From: a virus
Lineage: Duplodnaviria; Heunggongvirae; Uroviricota; Caudoviricetes
Reading direction: 5' to 3' (one strand)
IMG/VR virus record: IMGVR_UViG_2660238360_000004
DNA length: 17,587 nt
Shown here: in pieces, positions 528-10,367 of the stretch
Layout: each line of letters starts with the position of its first letter
Numbering within the stretch: the first letter of the stretch is position 1
The notes under the pieces: model-generated
Database searches by the model: none
The model's input: only the letters and a program-made list of their open reading frames with translations
What the model was told of the DNA's origin: nothing
Translations under genes and position numbers: made by a program

Positions 528-1555
<1,028 letters not shown>

Positions 1556-1738: not shown

Positions 1739-1915
1739 TTGCTATGGTTGGTTAATCATGCGTTAATGGTGTTCTGGTTTGTTACAAAATTATCTGAAGC
1801 AGTCATTGTTATAATTTTATTATTTGTACCTCTTGAGATTTCCTTGTTGGTTTTTCTCTCTGATATTTTTTTTCGGACCATTCTGCCCAAGGGCTAACTT
1901 CTTCAAAAGGTAATA
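1739..1915 (+). promoter_or_regulatory. Putative promoter and long 5' leader of the cold-shock gene
   Basis: AT-rich 360-bp intergenic region. Candidate -35 TTGCTA at 1739-1744 and -10 TTAATG about 18 bp downstream. That would give a leader of roughly 150 nt ending AAAGGTAATAATG, like the long cspA-family leaders. No transcription start data, so this is inference. Confidence 0.3.
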
Positions 1916-2131
1916 ATGATGTCTAACAAAATGACTGGTTTAGTGAAATGGTTTAACCCTGAAAAAGGTTTTGGTTTCATCACGCCGAAAGATGGTAGCA
2001 AAGATGTGTTTGTCCATTTCTCAGCTATTCAGAGCAACGATTTCAAAACGTTAACTGAGAATCAGGAAGTCGAATTTGGTATTGAGAACGGACCTAAAGG
2101 CCCCGCGGCTGTTCATGTTGTGGCACTTTGA
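1916..2131 (+). CDS. cspI: CspA-family cold-shock protein (start may be the second ATG at 1919)
   Basis: [38 protein letters not shown]... contains the RNP1-like KGFGFI and RNP2-like VFVHF motifs of the cold-shock domain. Family assignment is secure. The cspI symbol rests on the position just after the Rz-like gene as in Qin, and on recalled sequence. Confidence 0.88.
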
Positions 2132-2330
2132 GGTAGAAAATATTACAAACCATATTCACTTTAGATGCCCGTGTTGCCATGGTTCTCAGTATAGAACATC
2201 ATCTTTTGATGTTTCTGACAGGAATCCTTTCGGGGCAAAATGTATCTTTTGTAAATCAATGATGATTACATTTGATAATATTTCACAATACTTAAATGTT
2301 AGCCGTCTATCGTTAGATTTAAGAAAGTGA
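2115..2330 (+). CDS. Hypothetical small zinc-ribbon protein (CxxC...CxxC), start uncertain
   Basis: ORF 2076..2330 with the first plausible ATG at 2115, overlapping the csp stop. Contains CPCC-x20-CIFC. Many rare codons (AGA, AGG, CTA). Followed directly by an intrinsic terminator. Confidence 0.3.
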
Positions 2331-3273: not shown

Positions 3274-3480
3274 ATGCATAAAGATCAATACACTGATGCC
3301 CCCTCCCAGGAGCAGGTTCGTGTAAAAACTATGCTTAATAGCACCATTTCGATGGGTTACCCGGATGTTGTAATTGCATGTATAGAACATCAAGTGTCTC
3401 TGGAAGCATTCAGGGCAATTGAGGCCGCGTTAGTAAAGCACGATAAGAATACGAAGGATTATTCCCTGGTGGTTGACTGA
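3274..3480 (+). CDS. Hypothetical 68-aa prophage moron protein
   Basis: ATG preceded by GGAG 7 nt upstream. Translation [68 protein letters not shown]. No family recognised by eye. Confidence 0.45.
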
Positions 3481-3812
3481 TCACCATAACTGCTAACCAT
3501 TCTGACCATTTCACAAGTGACAGAGTCAATATCGTATTCTGTCACTGTCAGGCTAATACAGCAATGCAATTCAACTACAGCAATGCCTCGTATTTAGGTG
3601 AATTTACAATATCGTCCAGTTCGGATGCCGGCTGCATTTCTGAAGATAAGGCATTTCGGTTCTCGTATTTTCCCCTCATGCTCGTCAGTCCTGCGCGTAG
3701 TAAGAAACAGGACACTCACACTAATTTGTGTGGGCATGCTGTGATGTCCTTCTGAATTATCCCCATGCCATTATGTAAAGCTCTGTTTCAGATGCTCGTC
3801 ACGGTTGTCAGG

Positions 3813-3890
3813 CTGTCGGGTCCTCCCAGTGGGGGTCCCTGCCACGGGGCGGGAGCGTCGCGGAAAAAGGCTAGTTTTTGCATTTCCATG
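3813..3890. other. cos site (cohesive-end packaging site); putative cosN 12-nt region at 3847-3858
   Basis: CGGGTCCTCCCAGTGGGGGTCCCTGCCACG-GGGCGGGAGCGT-CGCGGAAAAAGGCTAGTTTTTGCATTTCC is collinear with the lambda cos junction as recalled (...ACGGGTCCTTTCCGGTGATCCGACAGGTTACG-GGGCGGCGACCT-CGCGGGTTTTCGCTATTTATGAAAATTTTCC). It lies about 190 bp upstream of the small terminase gene, as in lambda, and is followed by an AT-rich cosB-like segment. Confidence 0.6.
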
Positions 3891-4030
3891 GCGGCGGCAG
3901 CATGTTTGGTAATTTATTGATAATTAAAAGTTATTTCTCTTTTCAGCTGTACAATATTTTTTTCTCCCTGTCATTAGACTAGTTTGCAATTAATTGAAAT
4001 ATATAAATAAACCTGATTTTCACCTGCCAG

Positions 4031-4570
4031 ATGGAGTTGCTTATGTCAAATGTGAGCGGGATCGGTGATGCTTATTACTGGAGTGTTTTTAAAATCGCCG
4101 AGGCCTTTGGGCTTCACTGGGACACAGTAAAAAAACGGCTCCTCGCGGCCAACACTCCTGTGGCTGCGACTGTCAGGGGGAACCCCGTTTACGCCCTGCA
4201 GCATGTCGGGCCTGCCCTGTTTAGTGTGAAGCATGAGGCAGCAGACTCTGTTCATGATCCATCCCGTATGGAGCCGAAAGAGAGAAAGGACTGGTACCAG
4301 TCGGAAAATGAAAGGATCAAGCTGGAAAAGGAGCAGCGAAAACTCATCCCCGTTGATGAAGTAGTCATCGTCTATTCGTCCATGAGAAAGGCTGTCGTCC
4401 AGGTTCTGGAGACAATTCCGGATGTTCTTGAACGCGATTGCGCCCTGACTCCTCAGGCCGTTGGCGTTGTACAGCAGGCCATTGATGACCTGCGATACAC
4501 TCTTCAGGAAAAATCCTACGAGGCTTGTGCTGCTGAATTAATTCCTGATGAGGAAGGAGAGAGTCTCTAG
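4031..4570 (+). CDS. Terminase small subunit (Nu1-like DNA-packaging protein); alternative start at 4043
   Basis: Immediately upstream of the large terminase and downstream of cos. N-terminal helix-turn-helix-like segment (KIAEAFGLHWDTVKKRL) and a charged helical middle part (ENERIKLEKEQRKL), loosely collinear with lambda Nu1. Confidence 0.75.
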   Translation: MELLMSNVSGIGDAYYWSVFKIAEAFGLHWDTVKKRLLAANTPVAATVRGNPVYALQHVGPALFSVKHEAADSVHDPSRMEPKERKDWYQSENERIKLEKEQRKLIPVDEVVIVYSSMRKAVVQVLETIPDVLERDCALTPQAVGVVQQAIDDLRYTLQEKSYEACAAELIPDEEGESL

Positions 4571-4578
4571 GAGGAATA

Positions 4579-6678
4579 ATGGGTTTTTCATCAGCCCGAA
4601 ATTTGGGAAGGGACATATCGGCAGGATTTTCCCCACCACGTCGCATGCCGATTTCGGAGGCTGTTAAAAAATTCATGCGTGTTCCCAAGGGGGCTGGTAA
4701 CTCGGTGCCATGGGATCCTGAACTGACACCCTACATCATTGAGCCCATGAACTGCCTGGCATCGCGTGAATACGATGCGGTGATTTTTGTTGGTCCTGCG
4801 CGAACAGGGAAGACCATTGGTCTGATCGATGGATGGATTGTCTATACCATCGTTTGCGATCCTTCGGACATGCTCGTTGTGCAGATGACCGAAGATAAGG
4901 CCCGCGAGCATTCAAAAAAGCGCCTCGACAGAACGTTCAGAAGCAGTGCGGCGGTAAAGAAAAGAATGAGTCCACGTCGTAATGACAATAATGTCCATGA
5001 TAAGACGTTCAGGGATGGCTCGTTCCTTAAAATTGGTTGGCCCTCGGTCAACATTATGTCGTCGTCGGATTACCGGTTTGTCGCCTTAACCGATTACGAC
5101 CGTTTTCCGGAGAATATCGACAGCGAGGGTGATGGTTTCTCCCTGGCCTCAAAACGTACCACCACATTTATGTCCGCCGGGATGACTCTGGTGGAGAGCT
5201 CGCCGGGACGTGACATCTGCGACAGCAAATGGCGACGTAAGTCGCCTCATGAAGCGCCACCGACGACTGGTATTCTTTCCCTTTACAATCGTGGTGACCG
5301 CCGCCGCTGGTACTGGCCATGTCCGCACTGCGGTGAATATTTTCAGCCAGCCATGGATGCCATGACCGGCTACCGTAATGAACCGGATCCCTTTAAAGCC
5401 AGTGAGGCGGCGTATCTACTTTGCCCGCACTGCAGCGGCATTATCACGGCGGAGAAAAAGCGTGAGCTCAATAGTGCAGGAGTCTGGTTGCGTGAAGGTC
5501 AGGTCATTGATTGTAACGGCAACGTTTCCGGTGAACCGCGCCGCTCCCGTATCGCCAGTTTCTGGATGGAAGGGCCAGCTGCTGCGTATCAGACCTGGGC
5601 GCAACTGGTTTACAAATTACTGACTGCAGAACAGGAGTATGAAGCGACAGGAAGTGAAGAAACACTCAGGGCGGTTATCAACACCGACTGGGGATTACCT
5701 TATCTTCCCCGCGCCAGCATGGAGCAACGAAAAAGTGAACTGCTTGAGCAGCGGGCAGAGCCAGTTCCTTCCCGCAGTGTGCCGGATGGCGTTAATTTTC
5801 TTGTGGCGACAGTGGATGTGCAGGCGGGACGTCATCGCCGTTTTGTGGTTCAGGTAACGGGCTATGGCAGCCGTGGCGAACGCTGGATTATTGATCGTTA
5901 CAACATCACGCAGTCATTGCGCGGTGACAGCGACGGGGAGAGCCAGCGAATTGATCCGGCCAGCTATCCGGAAGACTGGGATGTCCTGCTGACGGATGTT
6001 TTTCATAAAAGCTGGCCGCTGGCCTCCGATCCTTCTCAACAAATGCGACTGATGGCAATGGCGGTGGACTCCGGCGGTGAAGACGGGGTCACTGATAATG
6101 CCTATAAATTCTGGCGTCGTTGCCGTCGTGATGGCCTTGGTAAACGTATTTACCTGTTTAAGGGCGACAGCATCCGGCGCGCAAAACTGATCACCCGTAC
6201 ATTCCCTGATAACACCGGACGAACGGGCCGACGGGCGCAGGCCGCAGGTGATGTGCCGCTCTGGCTTCTTCAGACGGATGCACTGAAAGACCGGGTGAAT
6301 AACGCGTTATGGCGTGACTCGCCAGGTCCCGGCTATGTGCATTTCCCTGACTGGCTGGGGAGCTGGTTTTACGACGAACTGACGTATGAAGAGCGGAGCA
6401 GTGACGGGAAATGGAGTAAGCCGGGTCGCGGTGCCAACGAAGCTTTTGACCTGATGGTGTATGCCGAGGCTCTGGTCATTCTGCATGGATACGAAAAGAT
6501 CCGCTGGCCGGATGCACCGGAGTGGGCGAGCCGGGAAACCTGGCTGGAGTGTGTCCCGGACAGTACCGAACCGTCATCCTCACCGGAACCGGTATCCACG
6601 CCTGTTAAAAAACAAAAACGGAAGAAAACAGTAACTGACGATGTTAACCCCTGGCTGACTTCCGGAGGATGGTTATGA
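4579..6678 (+). CDS. Terminase large subunit, lambda gpA family
   Basis: 699 aa with AGGAGG Shine-Dalgarno. Walker A-like VGPARTGKT. Collinear with recalled lambda gpA, including the CPHCGE motif (WYWPCPHCGEYF) and the C-terminal EAFDLMVYAEAL (lambda EALDCFVYALAAL). Confidence 0.95.
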   Translation: MGFSSARNLGRDISAGFSPPRRMPISEAVKKFMRVPKGAGNSVPWDPELTPYIIEPMNCLASREYDAVIFVGPARTGKTIGLIDGWIVYTIVCDPSDMLVVQMTEDKAREHSKKRLDRTFRSSAAVKKRMSPRRNDNNVHDKTFRDGSFLKIGWPSVNIMSSSDYRFVALTDYDRFPENIDSEGDGFSLASKRTTTFMSAGMTLVESSPGRDICDSKWRRKSPHEAPPTTGILSLYNRGDRRRWYWPCPHCGEYFQPAMDAMTGYRNEPDPFKASEAAYLLCPHCSGIITAEKKRELNSAGVWLREGQVIDCNGNVSGEPRRSRIASFWMEGPAAAYQTWAQLVYKLLTAEQEYEATGSEETLRAVINTDWGLPYLPRASMEQRKSELLEQRAEPVPSRSVPDGVNFLVATVDVQAGRHRRFVVQVTGYGSRGERWIIDRYNITQSLRGDSDGESQRIDPASYPEDWDVLLTDVFHKSWPLASDPSQQMRLMAMAVDSGGEDGVTDNAYKFWRRCRRDGLGKRIYLFKGDSIRRAKLITRTFPDNTGRTGRRAQAAGDVPLWLLQTDALKDRVNNALWRDSPGPGYVHFPDWLGSWFYDELTYEERSSDGKWSKPGRGANEAFDLMVYAEALVILHGYEKIRWPDAPEWASRETWLECVPDSTEPSSSPEPVSTPVKKQKRKKTVTDDVNPWLTSGGWL

Positions 6679-6887: not shown

Positions 6888-8395
6888 TGGCAATTCTTGA
6901 TGATGTGATTGGCGTTTTTTCACCAGGATGGAAAGCGGCAAGGCTGCGTTCCCGTGCGGTGATCCAGGCTTATGAGGCCGTAAAAACGACGCGGACACAC
7001 AAAGCCCGACGGGAGAACCGAACTGCCGACCAGTTAAGCCAGTACGGGGCCGTGTCGTTACGTGAGCAGGCCCGTTACCTTGATAACAACCACGATCTGG
7101 TTATTGGTGTATTTGACAAGCTGGAAGAACGGGTGGTGGGGAAAAACGGGATTATTGTCGAGCCACATCCGGTATTACGCAATGGGGCCATTGCCCGTGA
7201 CCTGGCTGCGGAGATTCGCACCCGATGGAGTGAATGGTCTGTCAGCCCGGAAGTCACCGGGCAGTTTACCCGTCCGATGCTGGAACGTCTGATGCTTCGT
7301 ACCTGGCTGCGCGATGGTGAGGTGTTTGCCCAGATGGTTTCCGGGCGCATAAACAGCCTGACGCCTTCTGCCGGTGTTCATTTCTGGCTGGAGGCGCTCG
7401 AGCCGGACTTTATTCCCATGACCAGTGATGAGAGCAACAGGCTGAATCAGGGCGTGTTTGTTGATGACTGGGGGCGTCCCGAAAAATATCTGGTGTATAA
7501 AAGCCGTCCCGTATCCGGACGGCAGATGGAAACCAAAGAAGTGGATGCAGAGCGAATGCTGCATCTTAAATTTGTTCGCCGTCTGCACCAGATGCGCGGG
7601 ACGTCTTTATTGTCCGGTGTGCTGATCCGCCTCAGTGCTCTGAAAGAGTATGAAGATTCTGAGCTGACTGCAGCAAGGATCGCCGCTGCTCTGGGGATGT
7701 ACATCCGGAAAGGCGACGGGCAGAGCTATGAAGCGGATGGTAATGGCAGCAAGGATAAGGAACGCGAGCTTACCATTCAGCCAGGCATTATTTACGATGA
7801 TCTGAAACCCGGCGAAGAAATCGGAATGGTGAAGTCGGATCGCCCCAATCCTAACCTTGAAACTTTTCGTAATGGTCAGTTGCGTGCCGTGGCGGCGGGC
7901 AGTCGTCTGAGTTTTTCCAGTACAGCGCGCAACTATAACGGCACTTACAGCGCCCAGCGTCAGGAGCTGGTTGAATCCACTGATGGCTACCTGATCCTGC
8001 AGGACTGGTTTATTGGTGCCGTCACCCGTCCGATGTATCGTGCCTGGCTGAAACAGGCTGTGGCATCCGGTGTTATCAGGCTACCCCGCGATCTTGACCG
8101 TTCTTCACTGTATACCGCGGTGTATTCCGGACCGGTGATGCCGTGGATTGACCCTGTTAAGGAGGCTGAGGCCTGGAAAATCCAGATTCGTGGTGGAGCG
8201 GCGACAGAATCAGACTGGGTACGTGCTGGTGGTCGTAATCCGGATGATGTCAAACGTCGGCGCAAGGCCGAAATTGATGAAAACCGCAAGCTGGATCTGG
8301 TATTTGATACCGATCCGGCCAGTGATAAAGGAGGCAGCAGTGCCGCAACGAAACGACATGAGCCGCAGCACACCGACGACCAGTCCGAAGAATAA
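6887..8395 (+). CDS. Portal protein, lambda gpB family
   Basis: ATG at 6887 overlaps the gpW-like stop (TGATG), with GGCGAGG upstream. The C-terminal half (SRLSFSSTARNYNGTYSAQRQE...YRAWLKQAV) is collinear with recalled lambda gpB (SVFEQSLLRYIAAGLGVSYEQLSRNYAQMSYSTARAS). The track ORF from 6815 is a read-through extension of this frame. Confidence 0.9.
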   Translation: MAILDDVIGVFSPGWKAARLRSRAVIQAYEAVKTTRTHKARRENRTADQLSQYGAVSLREQARYLDNNHDLVIGVFDKLEERVVGKNGIIVEPHPVLRNGAIARDLAAEIRTRWSEWSVSPEVTGQFTRPMLERLMLRTWLRDGEVFAQMVSGRINSLTPSAGVHFWLEALEPDFIPMTSDESNRLNQGVFVDDWGRPEKYLVYKSRPVSGRQMETKEVDAERMLHLKFVRRLHQMRGTSLLSGVLIRLSALKEYEDSELTAARIAAALGMYIRKGDGQSYEADGNGSKDKERELTIQPGIIYDDLKPGEEIGMVKSDRPNPNLETFRNGQLRAVAAGSRLSFSSTARNYNGTYSAQRQELVESTDGYLILQDWFIGAVTRPMYRAWLKQAVASGVIRLPRDLDRSSLYTAVYSGPVMPWIDPVKEAEAWKIQIRGGAATESDWVRAGGRNPDDVKRRRKAEIDENRKLDLVFDTDPASDKGGSSAATKRHEPQHTDDQSEE

Positions 8396-10367
8396 TTCCT
8401 GGTTCAGGATGCAGGCTGGTCACCAGAGTGACGCGGATATTTATATTTATGACGAGATTGGTTTCTGGGGTGTTACAGCGAAGCAGTTTATCAGTGATCT
8501 GAATGCACTGGGCGATATCACCCACATTAATCTCCATATTAATTCACCGGGTGGCGATGTCTTTGAAGGCATCGCCATTTTTAATGCGCTGAAAACACAT
8601 GGTGCGTCCATTACCGTTTATGTCGACGGTGTGGCGGCGTCAATGGCGTCGGTCATTGCGATGGTGGGAAACCCGGTCATTATGCCGGAAAACACCTTCA
8701 TGATGATTCATAAACCATTTGGCTTTACGGGCGGTGATGCGGAGGACATGCGCACCTATGCCGACCTGCTCGATAAAGTTGAGGCGGTTCTGTTACCCGC
8801 TTATGCACAGAAAACCGGGAAAACCACCGATGAAATTGCTGCCATGCTGGCGGATGAGACCTGGATGTCCGGTGCCGAATGTCTGGCACATGGATTTGCT
8901 GATCAGGTAACGCCAGCCGTTAAGGCAATGGCATGTATTCAGTCAAAACGTACAGAGGAATTTAAAAAGATGCCGGAATCCATTCGAAACATGATTACTC
9001 CGCCACGCAACAGTGCTCCACGCGTACAGGATAATGAACCTGAAGCCTCCCGGACGCCAGTGCAGGCAGCAGCACCCGTGGTGGATGAAAACAGCATCCG
9101 TGCGCAGGTACTGGCAGAGCAAAAAGCGCGTGTAAACGGTATTAATGATCTGTTTGCCATGTTTGGCGGGCGTTATCAGACGCTGCAGGCTCAGTGTCTT
9201 GCCGATCCTGAATGTTCGCTGGAGCAGGCCCGCGAAAAGCTGTTGAACGAGATGGGGCGCGAGTCCACGCCATCCAATAAAAATACCCCGGCTCATATTT
9301 ATGCCGGTAACGGTAATTTTGTGGGGGACGGGATCCGCCAGGCGCTGATGGCGCGTGCCGGATTTGAAAAAACCGAACGTGATAATGTCTACAACGGGAT
9401 GACCCTGCGTGAATATGCCCGTATGTCACTGACTGAACGGGGTATTGGGGTTTCCAGTTATAACCCGATGCAGATGGTCGGTGCGGCGTTCACACACAGT
9501 ACGTCTGACTTCGGTAATATTCTGCTGGATGTTGCGAACAAAGCCATTCTGCAGGGCTGGGAAGATGCCCCTGAAACCTATGAACAGTGGACGCGGAAAG
9601 GTCAGTTGTCTGATTTTAAAATTGCCCATCGTGTGGGTATGGGTGGCTTCAGTGCTCTGCGTCAGGTGCGTGAAGGGGCGGAATATAAATACGTCACCAC
9701 CGGAGATAAACAGGCCACTATTGCACTGGCGACCTATGGCGAGCTGTTCAGTATCACCCGTCAGGCCATTATCAATGATGATCTGAATATGCTGACCGAT
9801 GTCCCGATGAAACTGGGCCGTGCGGCGAAATCCACTATTGCCGATCTGGTTTATGCCATTCTGACGTCTAACCCGAAAATCTCCACAGATAATGTAAGTC
9901 TGTTCGATAAAGCGAAACATGCAAACGTACTGGAGAGCGCTGCAATGGACGTGGCATCGCTGGATAAAGCCCGCCAGTTGATGCGCGTTCAGAAAGAGGG
10001 GGAGCGTCATCTGAATATTCGTCCTGCGTTCGTACTGGTACCGACGGCGATGGAGTCTGTTGCTAACCAGGTCATTCGCTCCTCAAGTGTCAAGGGGGCT
10101 GACATTAACGCCGGTATTATTAACCCGGTGAAAGATTTTGCGACCGTTATTGCAGAGCCTCGTCTTGATGATAACAGCCAGACCACCTTCTACCTGGCTG
10201 CGTCAAAAGGCTCCGATACGATTGAAGTGGCTTATCTCAACGGTGTGGATACGCCATATATTGATCAGATGGAGGGCTTCAGTGTGGATGGCGTGACAAC
10301 GAAAGTGCGTATTGACGCCGGTGTCGCGCCAGTTGATCACCGCGGTCTGGTGAAATGTACGGCGTAA
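8340..10367 (+). CDS. Fusion protein: ClpP-like (S14) prohead protease, helical scaffold-like linker, HK97-fold major capsid domain
   Basis: One uninterrupted frame. The N-terminal region has ClpP-type motifs (INSPGGDV, a Ser in VAASMASV, a His in MIHKP). The middle is Ala/Gln/Glu-rich and helical. The C-terminal roughly 350 aa look like a major capsid protein. Start is uncertain: GTG at 8340 has AAGGAGG 5 nt upstream; ATG at 8409 is the alternative. Confidence 0.85.
   Translation: MPQRNDMSRSTPTTSPKNNSWFRMQAGHQSDADIYIYDEIGFWGVTAKQFISDLNALGDITHINLHINSPGGDVFEGIAIFNALKTHGASITVYVDGVAASMASVIAMVGNPVIMPENTFMMIHKPFGFTGGDAEDMRTYADLLDKVEAVLLPAYAQKTGKTTDEIAAMLADETWMSGAECLAHGFADQVTPAVKAMACIQSKRTEEFKKMPESIRNMITPPRNSAPRVQDNEPEASRTPVQAAAPVVDENSIRAQVLAEQKARVNGINDLFAMFGGRYQTLQAQCLADPECSLEQAREKLLNEMGRESTPSNKNTPAHIYAGNGNFVGDGIRQALMARAGFEKTERDNVYNGMTLREYARMSLTERGIGVSSYNPMQMVGAAFTHSTSDFGNILLDVANKAILQGWEDAPETYEQWTRKGQLSDFKIAHRVGMGGFSALRQVREGAEYKYVTTGDKQATIALATYGELFSITRQAIINDDLNMLTDVPMKLGRAAKSTIADLVYAILTSNPKISTDNVSLFDKAKHANVLESAAMDVASLDKARQLMRVQKEGERHLNIRPAFVLVPTAMESVANQVIRSSSVKGADINAGIINPVKDFATVIAEPRLDDNSQTTFYLAASKGSDTIEVAYLNGVDTPYIDQMEGFSVDGVTTKVRIDAGVAPVDHRGLVKCTA

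Follow-up and report, generated by a model that had tools for sequence, protein, structure and literature searches.

In phage lambda, cosQ is the packaging-termination element, and a dedicated survey of cosN was reportedly published by Vahanian et al. in 2017 (Virology 509:140). Natural differences in cosN among lambda-like phages lie at bp 9 and 12 in N15 and phiD326 and at bp 8, 9 and 11 in Gifsy-1 (PMC4669245). Feiss et al. 2015 described variation as common at bp 7-12, the left half of cosN and the CG dinucleotides flanking the nicks being conserved and cosQ highly so (PMC4669245). In lambda, the G2C mutation lowered the yield about 10-fold and the symmetric C11G was without phenotype; the lambda and N15 terminases showed no cosN specificity, and the accepted explanation is that the small subunit TerS, bound to cosB, positions the large subunit TerL for the bottom-strand nick (PMC4669245). 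For LLS/mEp213, a 12-nt 5' overhang, GGGCGGCGCGCT, was inferred at a site called 'putative' (Genome Res 2025, PMC12315714). Near-identical to the locus described here are the corresponding regions of phage cdtI (AB285204 / NC_009514, 2007), of the isolated phage HannyBb (PP925841) and of Tritos (OV696610), which is prophage 3 of E. coli LF82 and forms plaques and virions (PMC9928086).

The DNA that we analysed, hereafter the window, is a stretch of 17,587 nucleotides from a tailed phage (Caudoviricetes, IMG/VR record IMGVR_UViG_2660238360_000004). Its positions 3818-3863 read GGGTCCT-N20-CG/GGGCGGGAGCGT/CGCGG, where slashes mark the predicted nicks, and are collinear with cosQ-cosN of lambda (NC_001416), which reads ...ACGGGTCCTTTCCGGTGATCCGACAGGTTACG/GGGCGGCGACCT/CGCGGGTTTTCG... 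The wider segment 3800-3890 is ...GTCAGGCTGTC GGGTCCT CCCAGTGGGGGTCCCTGCCA CG/GGGCGGGAGCGT/CG CGGAAAAAGGCTAGTTTTTGCATTTCCATGG, the full lambda junction being ...TTTAC GGGTCCT TTCCGGTGATCCGACAGGTTA CG/GGGCGGCGACCT/CG CGGGTTTTCGCTATTTATG; the part before the overhang ends in ...CTGCCACG at position 3846. Window and lambda share the heptamer GGGTCCT, the left half of the overhang (GGGCGG), a CG at both nicks, the 12-bp stagger and CGCGG. They differ in the distance from heptamer to nick (22 bp in the window, 23 bp in lambda), at bp 7, 8, 9 and 11 of the overhang, and over bp 18-33, which read AAAAAGGCTAGTTTTT in the window and GTTTTCGCTATTTATG in lambda. The rotational symmetry of cosN, counted by hand, is also weaker in the window, with 8 of the 16 bp symmetric (pairs -2/14, -1/13, 3/10 and 4/9) where lambda has 10. 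A search of the window with the composite pattern GGGTCCT-N18-23-CGGGGCGG-N6-CGCGG gave one match, compared with 0.00 expected from 200 dinucleotide-preserving shuffles. A first-pass annotation of this DNA had proposed the collinearity with the lambda junction, with 8 of 12 overhang positions identical; its lambda sequence was correct when compared with NC_001416, and both statements held, GGGTCCT, ACG and CGCGG being common to the two sites. Of the flanking blocks CACG and CGCGG that it had called conserved, CGCGG is indeed so, but CACG corresponds to TACG in lambda and only ACG is common. Its further reading of the site as cos-type, with a 12-nt 5' overhang marking the virion ends, is supported, as far as sequence can show, by the collinearity with lambda, a TerL of the gpA family and the termini of the cdtI and Tritos records. 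The span that it had delimited (3813-3890) takes in cosQ, cosN and a conserved proximal element; cosB, the remainder of the site, probably extends to the start of TerS at 4031. The features of the locus are listed in Table 1.

Table 1. Predicted elements of the cos site and neighbouring genes in the window.
Feature	Position	Strand	Remarks
Phage lysozyme	528-1061		upstream of cos
Rz-like DUF2514 protein	1058-1555		upstream of cos
cosQ-like heptamer GGGTCCT	3818..3824	+	same as lambda bp 48473-48479; predicted top-strand nick 22 bp further on
cosQ-cosN spacer CCCAGTGGGGGTCCCTGCCA	3825..3844	+	moderate conservation; final CCA (bp -5 to -3) nearly invariant
cosN, 16-bp nicking site CG/GGGCGGGAGCGT/CG	3845..3860	.	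aligns with lambda cosN
Predicted nicks	top strand 3846/3847; bottom strand 3858/3859		by alignment with lambda
Predicted 12-nt 5' cohesive end GGGCGGGAGCGT, left virion DNA end	3847..3858	+	
cosN-proximal element CGCGGAAAAAGGCTAGTTTTT (bp 13-33)	3859..3879	+	A5 and T5 tracts flanking GGCTAG
Putative cosB, TerS-anchoring region	3880..4030	+	from the end of the conserved core to the start of TerS
Candidate IHF site TATCAATAAATTA (bp 64-76)	3910..3922	-	candidate equivalent of lambda I1; exact WATCAANNNNTTR core consensus
Small terminase subunit TerS, 179 aa	4031..4570	+	Pfam DUF1441; PHROG 141 'terminase small subunit'
Large terminase subunit TerL, 699 aa	4579..6678	+	Pfam GpA_ATPase 5e-81, GpA_nuclease 1.8e-86

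Downstream of the site lie, in this order, TerS, TerL, a lambda-family portal and a ClpP-protease/major-capsid fusion, all as full-length ORFs and with both domains present in TerL; tail genes are also present in the window. Together with the lysis genes upstream, this gives the lambdoid late-operon order of lysis, cos, terminase and head. TerL is 99.6% identical to the TerL of phage cdtI; with lambda gpA, it shares 24% identity across 627 aligned positions (E 7e-22). Since this protein matches gpA-family Pfam domains only and a lambda-type cosN is present, headful (pac) packaging and 3'-overhang packaging of the HK97 type were discarded. TerS belongs to a different sequence family (DUF1441) from lambda Nu1: BLASTP against Nu1 returned no similarity, placing TerS outside the Nu1 family, and a sequence search against PDB chains gave no match. 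In a structure model of TerS (mean pLDDT 82), a strand-helix-helix-wing domain forms the N-terminus and long helices come after it. The N-terminus is predicted to form a winged helix resembling the DNA-binding domains of lambda-like TerS and Rpp proteins, and the model would fit a Nu1-like mode of working without membership of the Nu1 family. Around the site itself, two ORFs (3564-3755 and 3765-3920) overlap the cos elements; they have no family matches and were taken as non-coding. No significant structure emerged when the site was folded as single-stranded DNA (z = -0.87), Rfam had no match at the cos site, and promoter- or terminator-like sites were not detected in 3300-4200.

The window shares with cdtI, Tritos and HannyBb the 12-mer GGGCGGGAGCGT, cosQ, the flanks, cosB and TerS, and differs from them by a few point changes in the spacer and cosB. 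DNA identity to the three phages is 98-99% over 3847-4100, and HannyBb is 99.2% identical over the whole 501-bp query (3600-4100). Upstream of cosQ the DNA is mosaic, and cdtI diverges a few bp before GGGTCCT. The cdtI and Tritos records both begin GGGCGGGAGCGTCGCGG... and end ...CTGCCACG, their base 1 being the first base of the 12-mer; the ends of these records split the 501-bp query exactly at 3846/3847. The ends predicted for the window are, in the form of record termini, the already accepted ends of near-identical phages. The Tritos paper (PMC9928086) states no basis for the start position of its record. Our literature search, which did not extend to Asakura 2007 or Vahanian 2017, found no experimental determination of the ends for this clade. 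The sole paper containing the exact 12-mer was unrelated, the lambda 12-mer retrieved single-molecule papers only, and a search for DUF1441 yielded nothing on cos.

Two further records are discontinuous at this place. The mEp460_4F5 record (LR595868) starts with CCACGGGGCGGGAGCGCGGAAAAAGG and ends in ...GGTGGCCTG; when these ends are joined, the resulting cosN falls 3 nt short of the GGGCGGGAGCGGCGCGG of mEp460. An assembly discontinuity located exactly at the predicted cohesive end may be taken as weak, indirect evidence for physical ends. In phage Ayreon (MF807953, record region 44298-44582), cosN is split into CCACGGGG and GTGGAAAAAGGCTAG; some 150 nt that look like coding sequence and carry the annotation 'putative late gene regulator' stand between them. 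The Ayreon genome was assembled and gap-filled from virion reads and opened arbitrarily, and the split in cosN probably arose during assembly, at the physical ends, and does not reflect a real insertion.

These comparisons make it very likely that the window holds, from 3818 to about 4030, a cos site that functions in the manner of lambda's. It would belong to a lambdoid prophage with packaging and head genes of the cdtI / Tritos / mEp460 / mEp213 (Gifsy-2-like) type. A less favourable reading is that the site is a relic, descended from a functional ancestor and now carried by a defective prophage, unused except perhaps by a co-resident helper phage packaging across it. Such relics do occur. 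In E. coli HS (NC_009800, 1661499-1670099), a degraded Qin-like prophage carries a cos segment 100% identical to window 3760-3960 (201 bp) with TerS intact, next to a TerL that breaks off after some 126 codons, where it meets a fragment of a tail-tip gene. A similar cos segment was found in 2106 of 5426 complete E. coli genomes, and many of these copies must be remnants; many genomic copies of cos belong to degraded prophages, and the presence of a site does not show packaging. The window, moreover, holds only a part of its prophage (17.6 kb) and gives no view of the regulatory, replication and tail-tip genes. Against this, TerS, the 699-aa TerL with both its domains, the portal and the protease-capsid fusion are all full-length, the cos/cosB/TerS region is 98-99% identical to that of virion-making phages, and in 771 complete E. 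coli genomes 80% or more of the 17.6-kb window is present. We therefore regard a relic as improbable for this locus.

In order to place the overhang among its relatives, we performed two pattern scans of IMG/VR, of which the second left cosN unconstrained and yielded 98 unique sequences. The lambda-like cos sites from the two scans fall into two terminase lineages. The first combines Nu1 with a lambda-type gpA and has mostly the overhang GGGCGGCGACCT; the second combines a DUF1441 TerS with a TerL about 24% identical to gpA, and has a cosQ-cosN spacer 1 bp shorter and CGCGGRAAAVGGCTAGTTTT after the overhang. Among the 98 sequences, mean information per position reached 1.90 bits at bp -5 to -1 (CCACG), 1.94 bits at bp 1-6 (GGGCGG) and 2.00 bits at the invariant bp 13-17 (CGCGG), and dropped to 1.03 bits at bp 7-12, the only variable part of cosN. 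Values were 1.38 bits over the spacer (bp -22 to -6), 1.59 bits at bp 18-22, 0.79 bits over bp 33-92 and 0.44 bits in the upstream flank; GGGTCCT was fixed by the search patterns, so that its own conservation is not independently measurable in these surveys. The CG dinucleotides beside the nicks were invariant or nearly so, with at most 2 of the 98 sequences deviating at any position. The conserved island is thus one in which CG flanks both predicted nicks, exactly 12 bp apart. The rule of right-half variation described by Feiss et al. was reproduced in the DUF1441 clade. The sample held 16 overhang alleles, the window's GGGCGGGAGCGT being the commonest (51/98), and this allele differs from the N15, phiD326 and Gifsy-1 variants in having four changes, bp 7 included.

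The overhang had also been taken in the first-pass annotation as a variant suggesting an altered terminase specificity. It does differ from that of lambda, but as the commonest allele of its terminase clade it is not unusual. The conclusion on specificity is not supported, since TerLs at least 99.5% identical are found with different right halves and one overhang is found with two cosB/TerS types. In its strong form it would mean that TerL depends on GAGCGT at bp 7-12 and leaves other alleles, that of lambda included, uncut. The 24% identity of TerL to lambda gpA is in line with such a change, as is a loose correlation between alleles and TerL subclades, pairs at 60-80% TerL identity almost never sharing an allele. 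However, TerLs that are 99.6-99.9% identical occur with one to three differences in bp 7-12 (GAGCGT/CAGCGG and CGCGCT/CTGGCT), and bp 7-12 are the sole poorly conserved part of cosN. The absence of cosN specificity in lambda and N15, and the lack of phenotype of C11G, a change present here at bp 11 (PMC4669245), argue in the same direction, making this reading very unlikely. TerL, then, does not dictate the right half, and the variant overhang is no evidence for a changed cosN specificity. Packaging specificity nevertheless very probably differs from that of lambda, as the comparison of sequences places the difference in cosB and a TerS unrelated in sequence; it is the TerS of another family and the unrelated cosB, not the overhang, that lead to this view.

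The cosB region varied in step with TerS. Sites of the GCATTTCCAT type came with a TerS 99-100% identical to the window's and sites of the GAAATTTCAT type with one about 41% identical, while the overhang GGGCGGGAGCGT occurred with both; cosB can thus be said to track TerS, one overhang being found with two cosB types and two unlike TerS. cosQ, cosN and bp 13-33 were common across the cosB types. The phages mEp213/LLS belong to the terminase clade of the window; they resemble it in a TerL 78% identical, a DUF1441 TerS, a Gifsy-2-like protease-capsid fusion, cosQ, the left half of the overhang and the flanks, but have another allele at bp 7-12, a cosB of the type CGGATCC...TCATCATCATCAT and a TerS starting at bp 130 instead of bp 185. 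More distant are the Chi-like siphophages (Chivirus chi, iEPS5 and relatives), whose TerL is about 40% identical to the window's; at least one of their records labels the neighbouring gene product as a DUF1441 protein. The cohesive ends of chi are 5' overhangs of 12 nt; unlike the window's prophage, these phages are virulent and flagellotropic, and their cohesive-end sequence is unrelated.

Within cosB of the window, we found short repeats only: lambda-style 16-bp R repeats, counterparts of R3/R2/R1, were not detected, by a script that recovers R2 and R1 in lambda. In close relatives TTTTCACCTG occurs twice (bp 94 and 171), and the window's first copy has one mismatch. The pair AGGCTAGTTT/AGACTAGTTT was tried as an R repeat and rejected, as it is a direct repeat in the window only, relatives reading AGACCAGTTT. 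N15 and the phage-inducible islands (PICIs) also lack multiple R sites (PMC9026076). As for the candidate IHF site, the window holds three exact WATCAANNNNTTR matches in its 17.6 kb, compared with 0.52 expected, and the one between cosN and TerS lies on the same strand as the best match in lambda (bp 79-91), 15 bp nearer to cosN. Most of the clade's other cosB types also have its TTGAT core, near bp 68-76, and a few have variants such as TTGAA or TTGGT. Lambda and the window are alike in having an IHF-like site between cosN and terS, a gpA-family TerL and the same gene order.

In the scheme that we infer for the nick positions, the use of IHF, the bases bound by TerS and the activity of the window's prophage, TerS would bind cosB downstream of cosN through its N-terminal winged helix, probably aided by an IHF-induced bend at 3910-3922. 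The cosB-bound TerS would then place the gpA-family TerL on cosN, and TerL would nick the top strand at 3846/3847 and the bottom strand at 3858/3859, leaving 12-nt 5' overhangs of sequence GGGCGGGAGCGT. By analogy with lambda, packaging would run rightward from the terminase-gene end and stop at the next cos, where cosQ (GGGTCCT) would be needed. The tolerance of the right half of the overhang would follow if the bottom-strand nick is positioned by the TerS-cosB anchor and not by base-specific contacts. TerS anchoring is the weakest part of this model, because repeated R-type TerS sites were not identified in cosB.

The lack of R repeats raises the question of a satellite. In E. coli, PICIs that hijack the terminase of a helper have cosQ and cosN near-identical to those of lambda-like helpers and no recognisable R repeats (PMC9026076), in which they resemble the window. 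In these islands, however, cos precedes rpp and there are no terminase or head genes, whereas the window has TerS, TerL, portal, protease-capsid fusion and tail genes, with lysis genes upstream; a cos-rpp module of the PICI type is hardly conceivable here and was ruled out by gene content. Finally, a chance resemblance to lambda cos in GC-rich DNA, which does arise with a degenerate pattern in high-GC genomes (about 85 of 120 matches), was ruled out by the zero expectation in the window, the position of the site exactly between lysis and terminase genes and the conservation of the island across mosaic phages.

The matches just mentioned come from a scan with a degenerate pattern in one genome per species. 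Real sites were found in Enterobacteriaceae only; the chance matches, about 85 of 120, lay in genomes with a GC content of at least 0.59 and had no terminase nearby. Two metagenome-assembled genomes labelled Veillonella parvula and Geobacteraceae carry an enterobacterial phage cos and terminase, with TerLs 100% and 78% identical to the window's, respectively; these are probably mis-binned phage contigs. Four IMG/VR contigs (L019, L024, L046 and L052) each have a pair of lambda-like cos sites that are inverted relative to one another and separated by 0.3-0.9 kb. Those of L024, at 3767-3813 (+) and 4659-4706 (-), flank a gene for a 184-aa Nu1-like protein with no TerL behind it. A further contig, L027, bears three cos sites in a 12-kb stretch. 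These five contigs could be prophage inversion junctions or satellite-like elements.

Sites of this type, the rule that the right half varies and the exact end sequence, in the form of public record termini, are already known, and the window adds one more example of a prophage module that is very common. In genome annotation, the site serves to fix the first and the last base of the virion genome. The prophage family concerned is present in a large fraction of E. coli genomes and includes relatives that carry cdt or stx; for this family, the site predicts cos-type packaging, with unit-length genomes and without generalized transduction by the headful route. As regards mechanism, little is added beyond another case of the documented free right half in lambda-like cohesive ends. 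What is added is that the rule is valid in the lineage with a DUF1441 TerS, that the overhang allele is uncoupled from the TerL sequence and that cosB changes along with TerS, packaging specificity thereby being assigned to cosB/TerS and not to the overhang.

One may ask whether the bp 7-12 alleles, of which there are at least 16 in the samples, are diversifying 'cohesive-end incompatibility types' instead of products of neutral drift. If this were true, a chromosome begun at the cos of one prophage and ended at that of another, in a polylysogen, would have mismatched ends, and a mismatch of two bases in the ends already lowers the yield about fourfold (PMC4669245). Divergent alleles could then restrict cross-packaging, the formation of hybrids or satellite hijacking among co-resident lambdoid prophages with near-identical TerL. 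The occurrence of different alleles beside TerLs that are 99.6-99.9% identical is compatible with incompatibility types and with drift alike, and we hold the former to be unlikely.

Some further features of the site and its surroundings were observed. The 21 bp after the overhang (CGCGG followed by AAAAA, GGCTAG and TTTTT) are conserved nearly as well as cosN itself across different cosB and TerS, so that the bp 13-33 element is common to sites unlike in both. GGCTAGTTTT was fixed in the pattern of the cosN-unconstrained scan, but it is also present in most DUF1441-clade sites from the independent pattern scan, a few of which have GGCTGG or GACTAG. The starts of the two A/T tracts in 3859-3879 are spaced by about 11 bp, as would be fitting for intrinsic bending or a contact with TerL, and lambda has at the same place a different sequence that is likewise rich in A/T tracts. 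We propose that this element may serve as a TerL contact or as bent DNA. The head genes include, at 8148-10367, a single ORF joining a ClpP-type prohead protease (Pfam CLP_protease) to a major capsid protein (Phage_capsid_4); this arrangement is Gifsy-2-like, and the RefSeq name of the product in the matching genomes is 'ClpP-like prohead protease/major capsid protein fusion protein'. Upstream of cos, a cluster of small moron-like genes separates the lysis genes from the site; one of them is a cold-shock gene that has a cspA-type thermoregulator. The thermoregulator (Rfam cspA, window 1761-2177, 109.8 bits) leads into the cspI-like cold-shock gene (1916-2131), and the counterpart of the cluster in E. 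coli HS consists of cspI, ynfQ, ynfN and gnsB.
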